Virus record (IMG/VR): IMGVR_UViG_3300025018_000500
Span: 1-25,436 of that record
DNA from: a virus
Lineage: Duplodnaviria; Caudoviricetes
Length of the DNA: 25,436 bases
Direction: 5' to 3' (one strand)
Part shown: positions 22 to 25,234 of the stretch, in pieces
Position numbering within the stretch: the stretch's first letter is position 1
Layout: every line of letters begins with the position of its first letter
Notes under the pieces: generated by a model
What the model saw: the letters and a program-made list of their open reading frames with translations, nothing else
The model's database searches: none
What the model was told of the DNA's origin: nothing
Translations under genes and position numbers: made by a program

Positions 22-546
22 CTATCTTTGACCCCACACCTCGATCTGCCCCGATGTCATATTCCCGACATCAGGGGTGCCGCTCGATGTCGAGCCGCCA
101 AAGATTCGGATGCGATTGATCGGATTGGTCGAAGCGAGAAATTGGATCAGCTCGCTCGGCGCTTGGCTGTAAACCTGCGGCATGATCCCGCCGCCGGGTT
201 GCCATACGGTGATATTGCCGCTTCGCTCCGCTGCGGCACCTGTAAAATGAAACCCGATAGATGAACTGTTGGTCAGAACGCCATCAACGCTTGTGCGCGC
301 GTAATTTCCGTTAGCATTGAACCAGCTGGACCCGCCGTTGATGCTGAATTGCATACACCGCTGAACCGCCGCAGCGTGAACCACGCGGTCGACGATCACC
401 TGAAAAATGCTCATGCCCGTTACATCGACTTCAACGATAGGCGCGGGGCTCGCCGCCAAATTCACATCGGCCAAAGCGACGAACGGCCTGCCGCGCCGGA
501 CAAACCCGGAGCCGAAGCCTAGAAAACCGAATCCTGCCCCCCTCAC
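22..546 (-). CDS. Small fibre/spike-like virion protein, 174 aa, beta-rich C-terminal domain
   Basis: C-terminal part of ORF 22..882. The GTG at 546 overlaps the tailspike TGA (GTGA coupling). N-terminus MRGAGFGFLGFG; beta-rich end INRIRIFGG...MTSGQIEVWG; visibly more AT-rich than its neighbours. Function inferred from position. Confidence 0.65.
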   Translation of the reverse strand: MRGAGFGFLGFGSGFVRRGRPFVALADVNLAASPAPIVEVDVTGMSIFQVIVDRVVHAAAVQRCMQFSINGGSSWFNANGNYARTSVDGVLTNSSSIGFHFTGAAAERSGNITVWQPGGGIMPQVYSQAPSELIQFLASTNPINRIRIFGGSTSSGTPDVGNMTSGQIEVWGQR

Positions 547-2837
547 AGCCGCTGCACCTTCACAACAGGCAAGGACGAGAAGGTCAGCACCACCGCTGCG
601 CCGGACGGGATCAGCACCTGCCTTCCGGTCGAAGTGCCGATCTGATCGCCGCCAAGGCTCACGTTCGATACCGTGCCCCCGGTGATCGTCATGCTTTCCT
701 TTGCACCGCTGTTGTTGGTGTAGGTCCAGGGCGAAGCGCCCACCGCCACAGCGGTTGCGGTCGCTTGGTTGTTGTAACCGGGGCAAGCCTCGATCATCAG
801 ATTGGTCTGGCTTGCGCCTACATCGATCCCGCCGGTTGTATTCCCGCGCACCACCGCACCGATGATCGAAGTCCGGTCGCACCCGGCTGCGATGCTGATG
901 CCGAAGCCCTGACTGTTCCCTGCAACAGACACGCTATCGCCATATCTGCCGCCCGCGATGTGCGTATCAGCTGCACCCGCCGCGATCCGCAGGCCGTGAT
1001 AGGTGCCCGCCGCCTCGGTTCCGTTGTCGGTTGATTCCACCCCGTCCAAGCGCACATCGAGCGGGCCAGCTTCGCGCAAGATGCCGTGCTGCGCATTCCC
1101 CATGCAGCGGGTGCCTTCACCAAGCACCACGTTGCCACGGAAAGCAGCACCGATGCGCAGGCCGTTGCCCGTCTTGCACGAACCGATCCAGTTGATCCCA
1201 GCGCCGAAAAAGCCCTCGCCGCGCACCAGATCGCAGCCGACAAAATAGTTGTTGTCGCATTCGAGGTTGAGCGAGAACGTCCATACCGGGTAACTCGTCC
1301 CGGTGTTGGCGCTGTCCTCCATCGCAAAGCCGCGCGCGCCGTTCAGCAGCGCGGTATAACCCAGCACCAAAGAATAGGCGAAGCTGTCGTGGATAATGTG
1401 CGTGAGCGCATTATGGGACACGAACCGCAGCTTCGCCGTTCCGCTGTCAATATCCGTGGTGAACACGCTATCGGGGCTGGCGCCCGAAGGATAGCCGCTC
1501 GGCGCTGATCCACCCGCCACTCCGGCCTGCACACATTGCCAGATGGCGTTATTGGCTACGAAGTGGTCGCCGACCGCCAGCGACATGCCGCCCGTGAAGG
1601 TCTTGCGGTTGCCGGGGCCGGCAGCAACAGCCGCAGGCCAAGGATTGTCGCTGATCTGATCTTCGCACACCGCCCGGAACGACCGGGAGCTATTGCTCCC
1701 GGTGAACAGCGTTCCCACGGTGCCGAGCATGTAACGGCTGACAAGCCGCCAACGGCATTCCGTCGCCCCGTCAAGAAGCAGGCCGTTCCAGCCATATTCC
1801 GTGCGGATGTCCACGCGGCACGCGAAGGAGGCGCCCGTCAGCTTGACCGAATAGCCGCTGGTCTTGCGCACGGTCGGCCAGAAGCACACTTCGCTGATTT
1901 CGCTATGCTGGCAGGCGGAAAAGGTGATGGCATCGCCCGAGGTAAATGCCTCGCGGATCATCGTGCCCGCGCTACTTTTGCCCGCGCCGATGATGCGGAC
2001 ATTGTTCAGCGCCGTGAAGGTGAGCGGCGAATTCAGTGTATAGGTGCGCCGCGACAAGCGCACCACGCCGCCGCCGCCTGCCGCCAGCACAGCAGCAACC
2101 GCGCGGGTGATACAGGGGCCGTCATGCGCATCGGCCACCAACTTGAACTGGTCGGCCCACACTTCGCGCTGGAGCGCAGTTTGCAGGTTTTCATCGCGCG
2201 CTTCGGCCCCGGCCTGCTTGAACGCCACCAGCGCCGCGCCGCCCACCGCAGCAAGGTCAGCGCGCAGCGCCGCGTCAGATCCCGCAACCGGCGCGGTCGC
2301 AGGAACAGGCAGGCCCGTTCCGGCCGCGCCGACATAGTATTTGCCCGCAAACGGGGCGGCGAGAAACCGACGCAGCTTGCCGTCGCGGTAGGCGAGCAAA
2401 TCGCCGTCGATCAGGTCGGAGAAATCGACTTCCGGCGGCAATTGCCCGCGCGGCACCCGCAGCGCCAATTCCGTTTCGCGCGCCTGTTCCTGCGCAATCC
2501 GCGTCAGGCGGTCGAGGTCGGCCTCGACAGCGCGGCCCGGCGGAATCTTGAACGGGTCATACTCGCTCGGCTGCTCGACAGTCGTTTCGCGCTGGGCATG
2601 GAACACATCGCCGATGGGCCAGCTGCCAATGGCCGTGATCGAGCCATCGGCACCATTGACGGGCAAGGTGATGTTGTAGTGAACGCCGCGCAGCAGCATG
2701 GTGGGAATGCCGCTCGCGGGCTCATGGTAAACCGCGATGTCGTCCGCGTCGGTGAAACTGATCCCCGGCAACGCCTCGGGGGCTTGCGCTGATCCGGGCA
2801 TGTAGCGGTGAAAGGTTTGCTGCGCGTTGACCGACAT
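543..2837 (-). CDS. Tail fibre/tailspike, 764 aa: T7 gp17-like N-terminal adaptor plus pectate-lyase-like beta-helix (putative depolymerase)
   Basis: N-terminus FTDADDIAVY...RETTVEQ...EADLDRLTRIAQE resembles podovirus fibre anchors. GAALVAFKQAG...DGPCITRAV...VVRLSRRTY resembles a beta-helix cap, and G/N-rich beta-helix rungs follow. Located directly after the ejection genes. Confidence 0.85.
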   Translation of the reverse strand: MSVNAQQTFHRYMPGSAQAPEALPGISFTDADDIAVYHEPASGIPTMLLRGVHYNITLPVNGADGSITAIGSWPIGDVFHAQRETTVEQPSEYDPFKIPPGRAVEADLDRLTRIAQEQARETELALRVPRGQLPPEVDFSDLIDGDLLAYRDGKLRRFLAAPFAGKYYVGAAGTGLPVPATAPVAGSDAALRADLAAVGGAALVAFKQAGAEARDENLQTALQREVWADQFKLVADAHDGPCITRAVAAVLAAGGGGVVRLSRRTYTLNSPLTFTALNNVRIIGAGKSSAGTMIREAFTSGDAITFSACQHSEISEVCFWPTVRKTSGYSVKLTGASFACRVDIRTEYGWNGLLLDGATECRWRLVSRYMLGTVGTLFTGSNSSRSFRAVCEDQISDNPWPAAVAAGPGNRKTFTGGMSLAVGDHFVANNAIWQCVQAGVAGGSAPSGYPSGASPDSVFTTDIDSGTAKLRFVSHNALTHIIHDSFAYSLVLGYTALLNGARGFAMEDSANTGTSYPVWTFSLNLECDNNYFVGCDLVRGEGFFGAGINWIGSCKTGNGLRIGAAFRGNVVLGEGTRCMGNAQHGILREAGPLDVRLDGVESTDNGTEAAGTYHGLRIAAGAADTHIAGGRYGDSVSVAGNSQGFGISIAAGCDRTSIIGAVVRGNTTGGIDVGASQTNLMIEACPGYNNQATATAVAVGASPWTYTNNSGAKESMTITGGTVSNVSLGGDQIGTSTGRQVLIPSGAAVVLTFSSLPVVKVQRL

Positions 2838-2890
2838 CGACCTGATCCTGCCCGAAGGGCCGTGGCGGTGGGGACCGGAACGCAGGCCGC

Positions 2891-2919
2891 GTATTACGTC
2901 TTACGTCAAACCCTGTCAA
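2891..2919 (-). promoter_or_regulatory. Putative sigma70-like promoter for the tail-fibre gene
   Basis: Minus strand TTGACA (2919-2914), 17-bp spacer, TAATAC (2896-2891) in the 86-bp intergenic gap. Overlapped by ACGT/ACGT/ACGC at a 7-bp period. Confidence 0.6.
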
Positions 2920-2923
2920 CGCA

Positions 2924-5455
2924 TCACAGGCCGGTGGACGGCTGCACCGCCGCCTCGGTCGGCTGCGGGGCAAGGGCATTGCCCAGGTTCGGCGCGCGCC
3001 AATCGAAGGTCGATCCGGGCGGCGCAAAATACTGCGTCCCGCGCTCGGCGGCATAGCTCTCCAGCCTGCGATACCGCTCGTCGATCTTGTCGCCGTAAGC
3101 CCACTCGCTCATGAGGTCGCCGAACGTCCGGTCGATCAGCAGGCGGGTCTGCCACAGCGAAATGCCGGGGATTTCACTCATGGCGATCTTTGCCGCCGCC
3201 TTGCGCCACTTGTCGTCGTTTTCGGGATCGTCGTCGATCTGCCCCATCACGCCTTGGCCGACCGCGAAAAGGTTATCAGCCAGCTGCGCGCCCGGCCCAA
3301 CCAGCGTGTCCGCAATGCCCCCGCCAAAGCGGTTGCGGTTGCTGAACAGGAAATCCCCCACGATCCCCAGCCCACCGCCCTGCGCCATCGCAGCGGTCCA
3401 GAATTTCGCCGAAGGCAGGCCGTTTTCATCAAGCATCGGCAGCGGGTCACGCCCCCGCGCCACTTCCTTGACCTGCACCGACAATGCCCCGCCCAGCGTG
3501 GTCATTGCCATGATCGTAACGCCATAACGGAGCATGAATGCACCAGCCAGCGCACCGACATCGCGGGCGCGCAAGCCTTCATCGAGCATCCGCCCGCCGT
3601 GCATGTTCATGATCGTGATGGGGAACCCTTTGAACAGGAACGCGCTGCGGGTGATTTCCCCCATCCATGTCCCGCGCTTCCAGCCCGAATTGAGCATGGC
3701 GCGGGTGCGCAGGTCCGGCACCGGAACGGCAAAGTCGGCCTCGGTGACGATCATCCGCATCAGATTGTCGGCAATGCCCTGATGCCCGGCCTTGGCGGCG
3801 GTTTCGGGGTATATCCATTCGGCCCCGCGATCCATGTCCGGGGTCAGCGCCCGCAGGATGTCCCACTCGCCTTCACCAATGCCGTATCGCTGGAGCAAGC
3901 GGGCAAAGGCCGGATCGAGATTGCCGAACGCTCGGTCGCGCATGTGCGTAAGGTGCGACACCATTTCCATGCCGAAGGCTTGCCGGGCAATGTCGGTGTG
4001 CGCCGCCAGCCCGCTTGCGCGCAGCACCCCGGTTGCCATGCGCCGCGCGCCTTCATGCGCCAGTTCCTCGCCCAGCATCCGCCACTGGCCCGAATGCCCA
4101 TCCGCCCATTGATCGGCGATCAGCACATGCCGCGCCGCCTGCGCGCGGTCGGCGCTGTTGGCGGGGTTGAGCATCGAGATATAGCGGCCCATCACCTTCG
4201 AGGCTTCGAGCCCGTTGAACCGGGATGTCGAAATCATCAGGCCATAGTCGCCGCCAACCGAAAGCAGCGCACCGCCCAGCTTCGCGGCGGTCTGCTGCGC
4301 ACGGAAGATCGAAAAGCCCATTGCAAGGCGGCGGTTCACCGGCTTGTTGTTCGATCCCACATATTCGTCATACAGGCGATCAAGGCTTTCCGCGGTTCCG
4401 CGTGCCGCGTCCTTCACCTTCTCGCCTTCGCGCCCGGTCAGCTTCGCCATCTTTGCGCGCTGCTCGACAAGATCCTGCATGAATTTGAGGGTAGCGCGCG
4501 GATTGGTGCCCATCGTTTCCAGCGCCGCGATGTCGCGGGCCATGCCTTCGACATGCGCCACCATCGCATCGAACGGGCTTGCCGCACCGCCGAATTGCTC
4601 GGCATATTCATACCAGGCATCCGATGTGGCGAAGTGTAGGACGCGATGTTCAGCCCGGCGGTTTGCCAGCGCCCCGGCGGTGATTTCACCGGGGTTCTTG
4701 CGGCTCCAGCCATCGGTTGCCACCGCCTCGAACATGTCGGTCAGCAACAGCTCCAGCTTGGCATCGGACATCGGTTCGCCCGTGCCATAGTCGATCATCT
4801 GACTGCGATCGAGTCGATCCCAAATGAAGTCGCGCCACGCCTCGTATCCCGCATCGTTGATCCGGCGCATGTCGTGGGTCTGCGGAAGCCGCCAGCTGTC
4901 CATCTTGCCGATCTGCCCGCCAGCTGCGTTGAAGCGGCTGCGCAGCCATTCCGATGTCTCGCGCCATGCCTGCGCGATTTCCTTGGCGTTCAGGTCGCCC
5001 GTATCCTTGCTCCACAATTCGTCCATCACGTTGCGAAGGTCGCTGGGATTACGAACATTGCCCATCAGGTCGCGCCGAAACTTCTCCAGCATCCCGTAGA
5101 GCATCTGAAACGCCTGCTTGCGCACCGATTGGCGCAGCCCGTCCATATCGACGATGATCTGTTCGGTGCTGCGCTTATCAACGATCTTGCCGCGCGCCTC
5201 GGCATCCTGCTGCATCCGCATGGCGATTTGGTCCTGCGCCTTCTGCTGCAACAGGACATGCCGCTTGCGCTGCATCAGGTCGCTTTCCGCCTGCGCCAGC
5301 GCCTTTTCGGTCGCCATTGCTTCCGCCGCCGCCCGCCCGTAGCGCCCCTCGTATTGAAGGATCAGTTCTTCATACAGGGGGCGCAGCCGCTCGAACCGCT
5401 CCGGCGTGATAACGCCCCGGTCGCGCAAATCGGTCAGGCAGGTGCCAAGGCTCAT
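2924..5455 (-). CDS. Ejection/internal virion protein, 843 aa (gp16-like, membrane-interacting C-terminal half)
   Basis: Start reassigned to the ATG at 5455 (ATGA overlap with the 88-aa gene). Helical composition with hydrophobic Gly-rich segments (VGALAGAFMLRYGVTIMAMTTLGGALSV; GGGLGIVGDFLF). Last ejection gene before the fibre. Confidence 0.8.
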   Translation of the reverse strand: MSLGTCLTDLRDRGVITPERFERLRPLYEELILQYEGRYGRAAAEAMATEKALAQAESDLMQRKRHVLLQQKAQDQIAMRMQQDAEARGKIVDKRSTEQIIVDMDGLRQSVRKQAFQMLYGMLEKFRRDLMGNVRNPSDLRNVMDELWSKDTGDLNAKEIAQAWRETSEWLRSRFNAAGGQIGKMDSWRLPQTHDMRRINDAGYEAWRDFIWDRLDRSQMIDYGTGEPMSDAKLELLLTDMFEAVATDGWSRKNPGEITAGALANRRAEHRVLHFATSDAWYEYAEQFGGAASPFDAMVAHVEGMARDIAALETMGTNPRATLKFMQDLVEQRAKMAKLTGREGEKVKDAARGTAESLDRLYDEYVGSNNKPVNRRLAMGFSIFRAQQTAAKLGGALLSVGGDYGLMISTSRFNGLEASKVMGRYISMLNPANSADRAQAARHVLIADQWADGHSGQWRMLGEELAHEGARRMATGVLRASGLAAHTDIARQAFGMEMVSHLTHMRDRAFGNLDPAFARLLQRYGIGEGEWDILRALTPDMDRGAEWIYPETAAKAGHQGIADNLMRMIVTEADFAVPVPDLRTRAMLNSGWKRGTWMGEITRSAFLFKGFPITIMNMHGGRMLDEGLRARDVGALAGAFMLRYGVTIMAMTTLGGALSVQVKEVARGRDPLPMLDENGLPSAKFWTAAMAQGGGLGIVGDFLFSNRNRFGGGIADTLVGPGAQLADNLFAVGQGVMGQIDDDPENDDKWRKAAAKIAMSEIPGISLWQTRLLIDRTFGDLMSEWAYGDKIDERYRRLESYAAERGTQYFAPPGSTFDWRAPNLGNALAPQPTEAAVQPSTGL

Positions 5456-5718
5456 ACGACGATAGCAACCGCAATGGTTTCGCCGCCGTTCACCTCGAAC
5501 CACGTTTCGCTGACGACCAGCTCGGGCTCGCCGTTCGGGTTCACGGTGATCGGCGAATCGGTCGCCACACGGATAAACTTGGTGTTGAGGTTCAGCGTCA
5601 GGTTGCCCGCATCGGCACGGCCCTGCACATCAACGAATTGCTTGCGCGCGCCAAGGTGCAGCGGCGCACCGTTCGGCGAAAGGGCGGTGCCACGGTATTC
5701 GGTGATCGTCATATTCAT
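5452..5718 (-). CDS. Small beta-rich protein, 88 aa, possibly a virion decoration or spike base
   Basis: Strong SD (TAGGAGAG) before the ATG at 5718. Stop overlaps the next start. Alternating hydrophobic pattern (TKFIRVATD...WFEVNGGETIAVAIVV). Confidence 0.7.
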   Translation of the reverse strand: MNMTITEYRGTALSPNGAPLHLGARKQFVDVQGRADAGNLTLNLNTKFIRVATDSPITVNPNGEPELVVSETWFEVNGGETIAVAIVV

Positions 5719-15452: not shown

Positions 15453-16079
15453 CTATCTCCCTTCGGGGCCATAGGTGGTGCGGCGCGCGGAAAGCCAATC
15501 GCTGCGCTGGGTGATAGCCCGGCGCTGCTTGTGTCCGCTCGATCGCCCGTCGATACGCTTGGCGTGGGCAAGCGCCTTGTCGGCCTCAACCCTGATGAGG
15601 TCCTTGATCGACTCGTCCTGGGTGATCGGCTCGGCAAGCCGCGCCGCGATTTCCAGTTCCAGCGCCCGCTCGAAAGCCGGGCTCCACGCAGCAATGTTCT
15701 GGCCTTTGGTGATCGAGATATAGCGGATCGGCAGCGGGGCGGGCGTATCGGTCAGGACACAACCGCCTTCCTCGATCCCCTCGAACCACGCATCGCCATC
15801 TTCATGCGCGGGAGGCAACCAGCGCAGACTGTCCTCGGGCAAGGTGAAAGCGTAGAGATAGCCGAATTCCGGGGCGGTGGCGGTTTCATTGAGCATCCGG
15901 CGGGCAATCGACCAATTCCACGGATGCGCCGCCAGCATGAAGCGAACGGCCCCATCCCACACCGATGCGGCGCTGGGAGCGGGGCCAAGGGAATCGTTGA
16001 CGGACTCGATGCGACGCGTCGATCCCAGCTCATTCAGAGCGGCGTTGATGATCGAAGTTTGTGACGCGCCTGCACTCAT
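15453..16079 (-). CDS. Tail adaptor / tail tubular protein A (T7 gp11-like), 208 aa
   Basis: IINAALNELG...HPWNWSIARRML...YAFTLPEDSLR...FERALELEIAARLAEPIT pattern; position after capsid and cement genes. Confidence 0.9.
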   Translation of the reverse strand: MSAGASQTSIINAALNELGSTRRIESVNDSLGPAPSAASVWDGAVRFMLAAHPWNWSIARRMLNETATAPEFGYLYAFTLPEDSLRWLPPAHEDGDAWFEGIEEGGCVLTDTPAPLPIRYISITKGQNIAAWSPAFERALELEIAARLAEPITQDESIKDLIRVEADKALAHAKRIDGRSSGHKQRRAITQRSDWLSARRTTYGPEGR

Positions 16080-16091
16080 GGTTCAGCCCTT

Positions 16092-16161
16092 GAGAGAAAA
16101 GGCGGCGCGCCAGCCAGAGCGTCCCGGTCCCCACCATGAAAGCCCGAAACTGGCGCGCCGC
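16092..16161 (-). terminator. Terminator-like hairpin at the end of the capsid-cement unit
   Basis: GCGGCGCGCCAG...CUGGCGCGCCGC followed by CUUUUCUCU. Position analogous to post-capsid terminators, but the loop is unusually long. Confidence 0.5.
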
Positions 16162-16207
16162 AGGTTCCCGCCGCTGGGAGAGAAAAAAGGAGGATGCGGC
16201 GGGAAAT
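16092..16207 (-). ncRNA. Candidate two-hairpin 3'-UTR RNA with guide-like loops
   Basis: Stem 1: 16196-16205 / 16165-16174 (10 bp), loop AUCCUCCUUUUUUCUCUCCCA. Stem 2: 16150-16161 / 16102-16113 (12 bp), 36-nt loop. Loop regions are complementary to the leaders at 25199-25226 and 2867-2883. Confidence 0.55.
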
Positions 16208-16212
16208 CAGCG

Positions 16213-16626
16213 TCAGCGGTGGGAAGTCACCACGTTGGTCTTGATCGTGCCCGTGCTGGGCAGCGCGCCGCTCGGCGTGATGATGATTTCCTCGGTTTCC
16301 GTGGTCAGCGCGATGCCGAGCGTAATCGGCGGCAAACGCACCTGCCGCGTGGCGTTCGGGCCGGCAGCTGCCGGGCCATACTTCGACGGGTTCGACGGCG
16401 TTCCGATCTGGAAGTTGATCGTGGACAGGTTGCCAGAGGCTTCGATCCAGATTTCCTCGATCTGATTGGCCGGGCCGATCTGCGCGATCTTGATGTCCTC
16501 GGTCGTGCCGCCATCAGTCACGAGGTTGATGAAGTTGCAATGCGAATAACGCTTCGCATTGTGGCTGGTCCCCGGAGCGAGCCGGAGCGGATCGGTTGCG
16601 CTGAATGCACTTCCATACTTGGTCAT
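16213..16626 (-). CDS. Capsid cement/decoration protein, 137 aa
   Basis: Purine-rich SD GAAAGGGAAAG. Beta-rich and T/G/P-rich (INFQIGTPSNPSKY...TGTIKTNVV). Directly downstream of the major capsid gene, as in BPP-1/epsilon15-like phages. Confidence 0.7.
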   Translation of the reverse strand: MTKYGSAFSATDPLRLAPGTSHNAKRYSHCNFINLVTDGGTTEDIKIAQIGPANQIEEIWIEASGNLSTINFQIGTPSNPSKYGPAAAGPNATRQVRLPPITLGIALTTETEEIIITPSGALPSTGTIKTNVVTSHR

Positions 16627-16732: not shown

Positions 16733-17647
16733 TTACGATTCAGTGCATTCGAGAATGTAGCACTTCTTCTCGTCGGTGCGGACGACCGCGCTGCGGGCCT
16801 CGCCATAGACCTGAATGTTCAGCTTCTTGTCCCGACGCGGGCCGATGTCGCCGAAGAATTCGGTCCACACACCGCGATGCAGGCCCGAAGGCACGAAACA
16901 CGGCAGGCGGCGCGTGGTCGAAACCTTGGTCAGCGCCCCGCCCTGCGGATAGGCCCGCGCGCTGTCCGGGTTGAATTCGATGAACCGGAAGCCCATGAAC
17001 GGCTTGATTTCGCCGCGCGCCAGCGGCGTGCTGCCGCTGTAATCCATGTTCCGGTATTGCTCGATATTCATGAGGTCCGTGACCTGCTTCGGCGTGACGA
17101 GCAGGATCGGCATTTCCAGCTCGAAATCGACATCGTTCAACGCCATGCGCTCGCGCATCGTTTGCAGCTTGGTCAGCGTCAGCCCCGATGCCGCCGCCGC
17201 CACCACGTTCGCAGCAGCGAAAGGCACAGCGGTATCGCCGGTCGGACCCTGCCACGCGCTGCCGAAATAGCCCTTGAGCCATTCGTCGTCATGGACGCGC
17301 TGCGCCGCAGTAGCGACACGCTGGGCCAACGGCGAACCGAGGGAAACCTCGGTCACGGCCTGGTCGTTCTTGTCGAACATCACCGCCACATCGCGGGCCT
17401 TGCCGACCTTGATCCAGCGGGCCACGCTGTCGGGATCGGTCAGGTTGGTGTCCTCAAGACGGCCGACCTGATCGGACATCGAGATTTCGTCAAAACGGTT
17501 CTCGATGCGGTGCGACGACTGCCCCGAATAGTTCTCGGTGCTGCCGACCAGCGGGTAAAGCAGGCCGGGCCGCTGCCGCATTTCATAGGTTACGGCATTG
17601 TTGTAGCCGACATTGCGATGCTGTTCTGCAAATGCGGGATCGGGCAT
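16733..17647 (-). CDS. Major capsid protein, 304 aa
   Basis: ATG 17647 preceded by AAGGAG. HK97-fold-like motifs (AAQRVHDDEWLKG; GLTLTKLQTMRERM; VTPKQVTDLM; KPFMGFRFI; AVVRTDEKK). Follows the scaffold gene. Confidence 0.92.
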   Translation of the reverse strand: MPDPAFAEQHRNVGYNNAVTYEMRQRPGLLYPLVGSTENYSGQSSHRIENRFDEISMSDQVGRLEDTNLTDPDSVARWIKVGKARDVAVMFDKNDQAVTEVSLGSPLAQRVATAAQRVHDDEWLKGYFGSAWQGPTGDTAVPFAAANVVAAAASGLTLTKLQTMRERMALNDVDFELEMPILLVTPKQVTDLMNIEQYRNMDYSGSTPLARGEIKPFMGFRFIEFNPDSARAYPQGGALTKVSTTRRLPCFVPSGLHRGVWTEFFGDIGPRRDKKLNIQVYGEARSAVVRTDEKKCYILECTES

Positions 17648-17659
17648 GGTATTCTCCTT

Positions 17660-17848
17660 GGTCAAAAAAGCGAATGATGGGTTCGGTTCTTCGACCGGGG
17701 AGGCGGCTTGATGAAGCCGGGCCGATCTAGGCGCTATCGCGCGCCGTAAGCGTGGCTGCTTTCGCCATCAGCACCGAGGCCGGGCAAATCCCGGAGAGGC
17801 CGGTTGACCGGAGAGGGCGGTAACGGGCCGCCACTCACCCGGTCGTAG
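17660..17848 (-). ncRNA. Structured 5' leader of the capsid gene, about 190 nt
   Basis: At least five hairpins, plus a 5' segment (CGACCGGGUGAGUGGCGGC) able to pair either locally or with a distal copy near 17692-17707. Confidence 0.55.
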
Positions 17849-17851
17849 GAA

Positions 17852-17880
17852 GAAATGATACGTTTTGCGTGTCGCGTCAA
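17852..17880 (-). promoter_or_regulatory. Putative promoter for the capsid operon
   Basis: TTGACG (17880-17875), 17 bp, CATTTC (weak -10). Contains ACGC/ACGC/ACGT at a 7-bp period and lies just upstream of the structured leader. Confidence 0.5.
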
Positions 17881-17886
17881 TCCCGC

Positions 17887-23359: not shown

Positions 23360-24021
23360 CAGCCTTCATCCTCGGCTTCGGTGAATTCGGCATCGACCAA
23401 CTGGTTATCGACCAGTCGCAATCCCGCCAGATCGGTTGCCTCGATTTCGCCCTTCGTCAGCGCCCGCCCGATGATTTCGGCGGCGCGGCGCGTGTCGGCA
23501 TCAAGCGCGTCGAACGCGCTTGCCGCGCCGCCCATGCCGGGCATCACGATCACGGCATCCACATTGCTCGTAATCTTCGCCTCGACCGGCTTTTTCGAGT
23601 GGACATACTCGGCCACCGACTTCGCCGCCGCCAGCTGGATGTTCAGAACCTTGATTGCGATGTCGCCGCGCTTGGAATCCTTACCCGGATCAGCCGCGCG
23701 GACCATTTCGCACAAGTCGAAGAACGGCATGGCATAGAGGCTTGCCATAGCCTCGACCGGATCGCCGAACTTGTGAACGATCAGCTTGGCGAGGTCGGCG
23801 CTGCGCTTGTTTTTCGAGCCTTTCGGCCTGCCGCGCCCGCGCGCATCGCCACCCGGTTGCTGCCGCACCAGCTGGAACACATTGGCAGGCAGTTTGCCCG
23901 TGTCTGGCTCGCGGAATGCGTCCAGCTGCTCCGGCTGCGCGCCGCCAAGCGGGCCGAGCCGCCCTTGGCTCTCCATTTCATCACGGATCGCGCCTTCAAG
24001 GCTGCTGGGCTCGGTTGACAT
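23359..24021 (-). CDS. terS: Terminase small subunit, about 220 aa
   Basis: Coupled to terL (TGATG). AT-hook-like RGRGRPKGSKNKRS and AKSVAEYVHSKKP motifs. Start placed at ATG 24021. Confidence 0.8.
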   Translation of the reverse strand: MSTEPSSLEGAIRDEMESQGRLGPLGGAQPEQLDAFREPDTGKLPANVFQLVRQQPGGDARGRGRPKGSKNKRSADLAKLIVHKFGDPVEAMASLYAMPFFDLCEMVRAADPGKDSKRGDIAIKVLNIQLAAAKSVAEYVHSKKPVEAKITSNVDAVIVMPGMGGAASAFDALDADTRRAAEIIGRALTKGEIEATDLAGLRLVDNQLVDAEFTEAEDEG

Positions 24022-24099
24022 CAGCCCCGCCCCGAATCTAGCCTGCTGAAACACACCCAACCGACCGGATCATGGCGCGCAGCACACCCCCGCACCCCA

Positions 24100-24600
24100 C
24101 ACAACCCGTTAAGAATCGGCGAAATTTTTTGCCGTGGGCCAGAACAGGCAAGCCCTGAACGGGCTTTTGCGCGGCCTATCCCCCGCACCCCGGACCCCAT
24201 TTGCCCGATTTCCTTGTTCCGCGCCCGAAATCGGGCTTGCTCCGCTCCGGCAAGGCGGCAAGCCGGGTGCAGGCCGGAATTTTCCAGATCCTGCCTATCG
24301 CTGGTGCGACCCGCATAGGGTGCGCGCGAACGGGCCGCAGGGGGGACCGCCCCCCCGGTCGGCTGCGCCGACCGCGCGCCCGCGCGCAGCTGGTGGGGCC
24401 TCGATCCGCGCCGCGTCTGATAACGGGCAGACAGGCGACGAGGCACCGCAAGCCCTTGGAATGCCGAGGCAATCGCAGCGCCATGCGACGGCACCCGCGC
24501 GACGGCCTCGACCGACGCTAGGCTAAGTGCCTGAAATTGCGTGAAGGGCGCGGCCTCGACGGGATCGAGCCGAGGCCGCGCCGGATCGGCAGCGCAGGCC
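24100..24600. repeat. Cluster of inverted repeats upstream of terS (possible packaging or genome-end region)
   Basis: IRs at 24203-24212 / 24227-24236 (10 bp), 24547-24558 / 24571-24582 (12 bp), 24150-24166 and 24357-24373; G6-N4-C7 run near 24340-24356; no credible ORF. Confidence 0.5.
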
Positions 24601-24805
24601 CCCGCGCCCGCAGCTGCTCGACCGCTCGCCCAGCTGGCACACCCTCCAGCCGTGGCGAATTCTCCAGGTCGACGACCCGCGCACCTGAAAATCACCCGTC
24701 GCGGCGAATATCCGCCGCCCAGAATAATCCCCGCCGAGGTCGAAGCCTGAAACATGGCCGGGAGGTTTAACGCGTGGCGCAATATCAGCGCAAGCCCGCG
24801 CCCCA

Positions 24806-25044
24806 AATGTTCCGAATGTTCCGACCCTAGAACGTGGATAGAACGGAGAAAGCCAAGCGAAAGCAAGGGACTAGGCCGAGGCGTTCCAATGTTCCACGCG
24901 CGCGCCACGCGAGCCGCGCGCGCTGCGCTCCACGCGGGAGGCTTTTGCCGAGGCCAGAACGGAACACCGGAACGCAGCGCCAACCTATTGAAAAGACACA
25001 AGCGCAAGCCCGCACCGCCCGTTATCCACTGGAACAGCCGGAAC
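24806..25044. repeat. Mirror-symmetric GTTCC/GGAAC repeat array, origin-like
   Basis: GTTCC at 24809, 24818, 24883 and 24891; GGAAC at 24961, 24969, 25031 and 25040; symmetric about 24927-24928 around a CG-alternating core. Confidence 0.75.
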
Positions 25045-25162
25045 GCTCGACGGATCGCCACGCGCACCAGCTGGGCCGCTGATATTATGCCCGCAAATCC
25101 GGGTCCGGGTTTGGGCCAAGCGATTGAGAGCGCGCGGCAATTCCCCTGAAACTGTGGGCAAG

Positions 25163-25191
25163 TTGACGCGGCCCGGTTTTAACGTTAGACG
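25163..25191 (+). promoter_or_regulatory. Putative sigma70-like promoter for the divergent gene
   Basis: TTGACG (25163-25168), 17 bp, TAGACG (25186-25191). ACGT at 25182, 25189 and 25196. AGGAGG SD downstream. Confidence 0.6.
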
Positions 25192-25234
25192 TAAAACGTC
25201 TCGCAGTTGGGACGAAGCAAAGGAGGCTTCCCGA

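Follow-up and report, generated by a model that had tools for sequence, protein, structure and literature searches.

A hairpin in the gap behind the capsid operon of this podophage carries a loop segment complementary to the predicted start of the tail fibre message of the same phage, and comparison with related phages indicates that this RNA-RNA complementarity is very probably real, conserved and specific to each phage. We have analyzed a window of 25,436 nucleotides, the whole stretch of DNA under study, together with its relatives in sequenced genomes and viral contigs. RNA folding models suggest, with a probability that we put at roughly 0.55, that the hairpin is a trans riboregulator that would activate translation of the fibre and lysis genes and link it to capsid output. 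The coordinates of the features discussed are collected in Table 1.

Family searches and the relatives identify the window as the late region of a BcepC6B/BPP-1-like podophage. Its genes run from terminase and portal through capsid and a 137-aa gene to tail tubes A and B, internal proteins, a phrog_684 protein and a 764-aa gene that is fibre-like; those late genes that were mapped are co-linear between the window and its relatives. Since the capsid relatives, at 38-71% identity, are Sphingomonadales genomes and proviruses, the group is likely temperate. A search of INPHARED revealed no close cultured phage, the best full-length matches being about 28-34% identical, and no viral relatives were found with the gp14-like protein alone as the query. 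The 137-aa gene has no family match. The 764-aa protein itself matches no family or PDB entry; its N-terminus matches genes of the relatives, one of which matches tail-fibre PHROGs and a beta-helix, and the fibre set of the relatives matches BcepC6B gp18, a "tail fiber protein". Position and this N-terminal homology point to a tail fibre. A lysozyme-like gene follows the fibre in both of the two relatives checked, and the end of the window falls before any lysis gene. BcepC6B lacks a long-loop hairpin ahead of tube A, and the gap preceding its fibre gene is just 58 nt. Near the other end of the window lies a 348-aa ORF (24021-25067) that has no family match, matches only three non-identical relative loci, weakly, and overlaps several hairpins; it may be partly non-coding.

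Table 1. Features of the window bearing on the capsid-fibre RNA pair
Feature	Position	Strand	Remarks
Conserved structured capsid leader with promoter-like site	17666..17886	-	fold z -3.52
Major capsid protein	16733..17665	-	phrog_3437, PF19821
137-aa gene after the capsid gene	16213..16626	-	decoration-like by position only; trigger hairpin in its 3' gap
Hairpin 1	16165..16205	-	10-bp stem, 21-nt pyrimidine loop
Trigger hairpin (hairpin 2)	16102..16161	-	14-bp GC stem, 32-nt purine-rich loop
Pairing segment, 3' half of loop	16119..16135	-	17-nt duplex with 2867-2883
Pyrimidine tract after stem	16092..16101	-	5 T in 8 nt; not a canonical U-tract
Tail tubular protein A	15453..16079	-	phrog_394; directly downstream of trigger hairpin
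Virion structural protein	2924..5503	-	phrog_684; upstream of fibre promoter
Predicted sigma70-type fibre promoter	2891..2919	-	TTGACA (2919-2914), 17 nt, TAATAC (2896-2891), no -7T; ACGT-N3-ACGT operator-like site at 2896-2906
C-rich target, predicted first bases of fibre transcript	2867..2883	-	7 nt after the -10 box
Rest of fibre leader	2838..2866	-	small hairpin; SD-like AGGA at 2849-2846
Tail fibre/spike gene, 764 aa (putative)	543..2837	-	position and N-terminal homology

Segments 16119-16135 and 2867-2883 of the plus strand are inverted repeats of each other but for one mismatch. Read on the minus (sense) strand, the first (16135-16119) and the second (2883-2867) form a 17-nt duplex of 16 Watson-Crick pairs and one G-U, which an extra terminal U-G extends to 18. 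An earlier, sequence-only reading of this DNA had described such a complement, with the mismatch a wobble on the sense strand, had located both sites in gaps between genes and had placed the target directly behind the predicted -10 box; all three points are confirmed. The duplex is the longest of its kind in the window, which also holds three 16-mers and fifteen 15-mers; because 17 only just exceeds these in mostly coding DNA, length alone says little. The placement in two short gaps carries more weight. In shuffled controls, which that reading had proposed, a run of 17 never arose in 1000 shuffles of the late intergenic sequence (616 nt; the maximum was 15), nor in 150 when the unannotated ends were added to it. 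Two details were modified. The loop segment is a genuine complement, but in the predicted fold it is partly paired inside the loop; and the pairing of GGUCC with GGAUC that had been drawn over the fibre SD is not part of the minimum-energy fold of the leader. The exact 17-mer has four matches in viral contigs, none of them in related phages; what the relatives conserve is thus the pairing and not the letters.

The trigger hairpin has a predicted folding energy of -42.1 kcal/mol (z -6.35), a value that none of 200 shuffles reached. For comparison, the post-capsid gap was paired with the fibre leader of the same phage for 25 relatives and the window, giving 26 loci. A rule-based search finds the hairpin in 24 of these, with stems of 11-18 bp and purine-rich loops of 18-54 nt; the two loci without it (L034 and L040) were omitted from the pairing tests. 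The stem covaries: among 18 hand-chosen rows, 94.8% of the cells of a 13-bp hairpin are paired and 9 of the 13 pairs show two-sided changes, a level found in 0 of 500 shuffles and set against at most 49% in slid controls. Rho-independent terminators have a short loop and a U-tract; here the loops are long, at least five T in the next 8 nt occur in only 6 of 24 loci, and the hairpin is absent from the terminator predictions for the window. Searched against Rfam 15, the window gave four weak matches at E<=5, none at either site, and seven relative loci gave no match at gathering score, C4-type phage antisense RNAs included. Nor does the loop have a recurring second target in the capsid leader (mean run 7.2 nt, the background level). 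Upstream of the hairpin, 12 of 24 loci have a further stem of 7 bp or more; in the window this is hairpin 1, which may be a 5' protecting element of a processed RNA. Its loop (16175-16195) consists of 21 pyrimidines, among them an anti-SD-like stretch, and C/U-rich loops occupy this position in some relatives too.

The pairing of loop and leader was followed through the relatives. Whole-loop duplex energies are noisy in this GC-rich DNA; in a scan of each prophage by energy, the fibre leader ranks first in 5 of the 23 relatives and among the first five in 7 (Fisher p 1e-9). With these results known, we turned to a run-length rule in which the 3' 22 nt of the loop serve as the query and the longest run with at most one G-U is scored. 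By this rule no other window matches the loop as well as the 100 nt before the fibre start in 14 of the 23 relatives. As L027/L082 and L029/L081 join separate contigs of G029 that were matched by complementarity, the fair count is 12 of 21 same-contig relatives, in each of which the leader stood among 144-320 windows. The leader ranked worse than 10th in 7 of the 23, two loci (L033 and L035) have a hairpin and no convincing target, and seven of the 14 top matches share one core, so that these counts do not represent independent events. Cognate combinations have a mean run of 11.8 nt, non-cognate ones of 7.1 nt (permutation 0 of 100000), and in a set of 11 representatives without cross-reaction no off-diagonal run exceeds 9 (again 0 of 100000). 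Compensatory changes, which the sequence-only reading had named as the thing to look for in the gaps of related phages, are visible as direct swaps (L036/L073 versus L145, and L032/L075 versus L038/L076) and persist across capsids at 40-64% identity. Used as a control query, the capsid leader finds scattered partners and no recurring site. Most duplexes are 9-16 bp long and some reach 18-28 bp; many pairs extend over only 9-12 nt or are bipartite, and the interior mismatches, small in number, are three G-U, one A-C and one other.

Held-out phages that have both hairpin and leader, scored by the fixed rule, gave ranks of 1 of 196, 21 of 196, 15 of 158, 19 of 164 and 2 of 174 (Fisher p 2.8e-4, n=5). 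A first set of 74 held-out viral loci was for the most part uninformative: a required gene was missing from 25, a usable start from 12 and the hairpin from 20, which left 17 to be scored. Five loci, scored or hairpin-less, duplicated training phages, and most of those scored were without the leader. Among 56 loci, hairpin and leader occur together in 29, are both missing in 20 and are discordant in 7, a co-occurrence confounded by ancestry. The trans-acting RNA-RNA switch that had been proposed is well supported as far as pairing is concerned, by phage-specific covariation, while its function and the RNAs themselves are predicted.

What the pairing would do is suggested by the folding of the leaders. 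In most relatives, the C-rich target and its flank are predicted to pair with the ribosome site and the start codon of the free leader. When the target is held unpaired, the cost of opening the RBS falls by more than 1 kcal in 18 of 22 leaders (mean 4.4) and rises in none, and blocking the target does better than blocking control segments of the same length in 13 of 18. The gain in the window is just 1.0 kcal, and its target:RBS duplex ranks 18th of 22; the sequence-only proposal that the capsid-operon 3' end frees the fibre RBS is accordingly the best fit in the relatives, but weak in the window. Little phage specificity is seen in the target:RBS pairing (-16.5 versus -15.4 kcal, permutation p 0.03). 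Co-folding of the full hairpin with the leader, in a model that cannot form kissing loops, gives a gain of at least 5 kcal in 9 of 22 and of 0 kcal in another 9. About 28-72 nt separate the end of the duplex from the start codon downstream, which places the duplex outside a ribosome footprint and disfavours direct blocking of the RBS. In the mechanism that we favour, the hairpin loop behind the capsid operon would act in trans as an RNA key on the fibre message of the same phage, whose C-rich segment is predicted to fold onto the ribosome site. The trigger would be the capsid mRNA, or a processed piece of it, present at the same time as the fibre message; pairing would start loop to loop, and binding would release the fibre RBS, with activation as the outcome. 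The fibre gene and the lysis genes downstream would then be translated only once the capsid message accumulates.

The promoters bear on the timing of the two messages. A promoter-like site similar to that of the window precedes the fibre gene in 19 of 26 loci, by a permissive scan that had no chance control, and the target starts 7-28 nt after the -10 box in the relatives. Promoters that lack the -7 T are common in Alphaproteobacteria according to the available part of PMC7703639. Promoter and target remain with the fibre gene even where 0.6-1.7 kb has been inserted after the phrog_684 gene (L059, L065 and L077). The window contains three exact ACGT-N3-ACGT sites against 0.13 expected, one at the fibre promoter (2896-2906) and two at 25182-25199, near its right end. 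An operator-like site with one mismatch lies at the capsid promoter (17860-17870), the count of such one-mismatch sites being at chance level. Capsid and fibre promoters of the relatives share phage-specific motifs (p 0.014, n=8, three of them close kin), and this sequence pattern suggests joint repression of the two. Both promoters could therefore switch on together, and where they do, it would be the RNA pair that sets the order of expression.

The capsid leader is itself structured, with about 200 nt that include a conserved multi-stem core and a C-rich box pairing over the capsid RBS. It has no Rfam match, and a trigger for it was sought in the relatives and not found; it is probably the start of the transcript that carries the trigger hairpin. 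A second complementary pair in the window, 24361-24347 with the anti-SD box of this leader at 17706-17692 (15 nt, sense strand), was not reproduced in the relatives and is attributed to chance.

The same complementarity would allow control in the reverse or in both directions, with the fibre leader RNA invading the hairpin, releasing its 3' arm and altering read-through into the tail genes or their translation; in a lysogen this could serve superinfection immunity, by analogy with P4 CI. The flanks of the leader can indeed pair with the arms of the hairpin, as in L029/L081, where 27 of 28 nt are complementary, and blocking the loop together with the 5' arm makes the tube A RBS more than 1 kcal costlier to open in 11 of 24 loci and less costly in 2. 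Blocking the loop alone, however, shifts that cost by a mean of 0.03 kcal, and the leader has no evident terminator that would yield a short RNA. The joint repression suggested by the shared promoter motifs also counts against this direction, as does the hairpin itself, with its long loops and scarce T tracts; these features of the hairpin also leave the idea that the fibre 5' end modulates termination before the tail genes, the other arm of the earlier proposal, poorly supported. We regard reverse control as unlikely.

It is slightly more doubtful that the pairing acts on the stability of the fibre mRNA, by protecting its 5' end or, as negative feedback, by exposing the duplex to cleavage. 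In favour of such a role, the message of the window and those of L018, L024 and L029 are predicted to begin with the target (7-11 nt after the -10 box), several leaders gain little at the RBS, and the longest duplexes measure 18-28 bp. Against it, the prevailing length of 9-16 bp is short for RNase III, and in the leaders of most relatives the target is predicted to pair with the RBS.

It is very improbable that the complementarity has no function, whether as a product of chance or of a shared SD-like versus anti-SD composition, or as what is left of an inverted duplication. C-rich targets do pair with most G-rich RBS regions, three 16-mer matches occur elsewhere in the window, and L029/L081 resembles a duplication; but cognate runs lie far above non-cognate ones, the held-out test was passed, compensatory changes extend across distant capsids and the control query yields no recurring site. 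The sequence-only reading had also offered a pair of inverted DNA sites, for recombination, inversion or protein binding, as an alternative; sixteen of the 17 positions do form an inverted repeat in the DNA, and phage-specific sites are typical of recombinases too, but inversion would flip the tail module, whose mapped genes are co-linear, one copy always lies in the loop of a stem that covaries as a fold-back, many pairs are very short or bipartite, and the few interior mismatches are mostly G-U, all of which makes this the least credible explanation and leaves it unsupported.

Pairing of a phage RNA with complementary sites in another phage transcript is familiar from P1 C4. The closest precedents for activation, as described in the available parts of the papers cited, are IsrK and PreS. 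IsrK of the Salmonella prophage Gifsy-1 opens, in trans, the RBS of a translationally silent phage mRNA (PMC4825925), and the hairpin described here would likewise be a prophage RNA that exposes the RBS of a phage mRNA. IsrK and its target overlap and share one promoter, and the target leads to an antirepressor (PMC4825925), whereas the proposed key described here follows the capsid operon at a distance of 13 kb from the fibre and lysis message, which has its own predicted promoter, and this key varies from phage to phage. The lambda RNA PreS/LPR1 pairs upstream of the dnaN start codon and exposes the RBS (bioRxiv 10.1101/2024.10.31.621285), which resembles the pairing upstream of a start codon and the RBS exposure predicted here; PreS, however, is a free Hfq-bound sRNA with host targets (bioRxiv 10.1101/2024.10.31.621285), and the present target is a phage late gene. 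As in those two systems, complementarity is to a leader segment upstream of the RBS, here conserved by covariation.

The comparison with P4 CI made in the sequence-only reading holds loosely, in that a phage RNA is complementary to sites in another phage transcript, but IsrK and PreS are closer in mechanism. P4 CI is processed from the transcript under its own control and brings about premature termination for immunity (PMC4825925, available part); in place of a regulator between two target sites on one transcript, we find a single target 13 kb away with its own predicted promoter, no Rfam match and a predicted effect of translation activation. SdhX is cut by RNase E from the 3' end of an operon and represses with the help of Hfq, which it needs (PMC6393394, available part). 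The trigger hairpin similarly closes a block of genes and would regulate another mRNA in trans, but it lies inside a late region and is without a typical U-tract. STnc6030 of BTP1 and as15 of PAK_P4 are inhibitory antisense RNAs that control tailspike or endolysin (PMC12197685); base pairing and the type of target, as predicted here, are alike, while locus (distant), complementarity (partial) and predicted effect (activation) differ. In its available part, this 2025 review of phage sRNAs does not mention "capsid" and reports control of tailspike or endolysin only through inhibitory antisense RNAs. A description of the hairpin-leader element was not found in searches of the open-access literature. 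Three short motifs were absent from the accessible content of six supplement files of a catalogue of viral structured RNAs (PMC10690425), of which files 1, 2 and 4 may list the hairpin.

A wider form of the activation reading, which we hold only tentatively, is that these are phage-private RNA locks and keys forming an assembly checkpoint, in which capsid mRNA would license translation of fibre and lysis genes, each phage having its own key, and keys would be born by inverted duplication of the leader hairpin, as the 27 of 28 match of L029/L081 suggests. With a key of its own for each phage, co-resident prophages would not cross-trigger; G029 appears to carry two such non-matching pairs. To our knowledge, how temperate podophages without a phage RNA polymerase order the production of heads, fibres and lysis proteins is largely open. 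If the activation reading is true, a direct link from mRNA to mRNA would couple capsid output to fibre and lysis translation, an RNA-only timing layer for late genes, and the pairs would constitute natural orthogonal riboregulators for Alphaproteobacteria. Because they are short, vary between phages and occur in prophages of cultured sphingomonads, among them Novosphingobium clariflavum 164, Stakelama pacifica DSM 25059 and N. huizhouense c7, they are directly testable with reporters.

Several individual loci merit separate mention. G029 seems to hold two related prophages with different, matched pairs on contigs that the assembly does not join, and it is there that the post-capsid gap of L029 is complementary to the leader of L081. 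The prophage of G075 (L086:1900-3400) lacks the genes from tube B through the phrog_684 gene, so that its fibre lies 1.3 kb after tube A, and it keeps a 15-nt match between hairpin and leader. The site upstream of the fibre promoter appears to be an insertion hotspot; in L065 and L077, the roughly 1.7 kb that separate the phrog_684 gene from the fibre gene as an insertion include an ORF that by eye resembles a Bro-N antirepressor. Three more distant phages (L146, L090 and L099) have an extra small gene before tube A and show complements of 9-13 nt between their fibre leader and the gap that follows the post-capsid gene. When the leader of six loci was used afterwards as the query, two of them (L146 and L090) had a complement of 11-13 nt in this gap, one small gene further from tube A, which gives a post-hoc lead to a wider distribution of the pairing.
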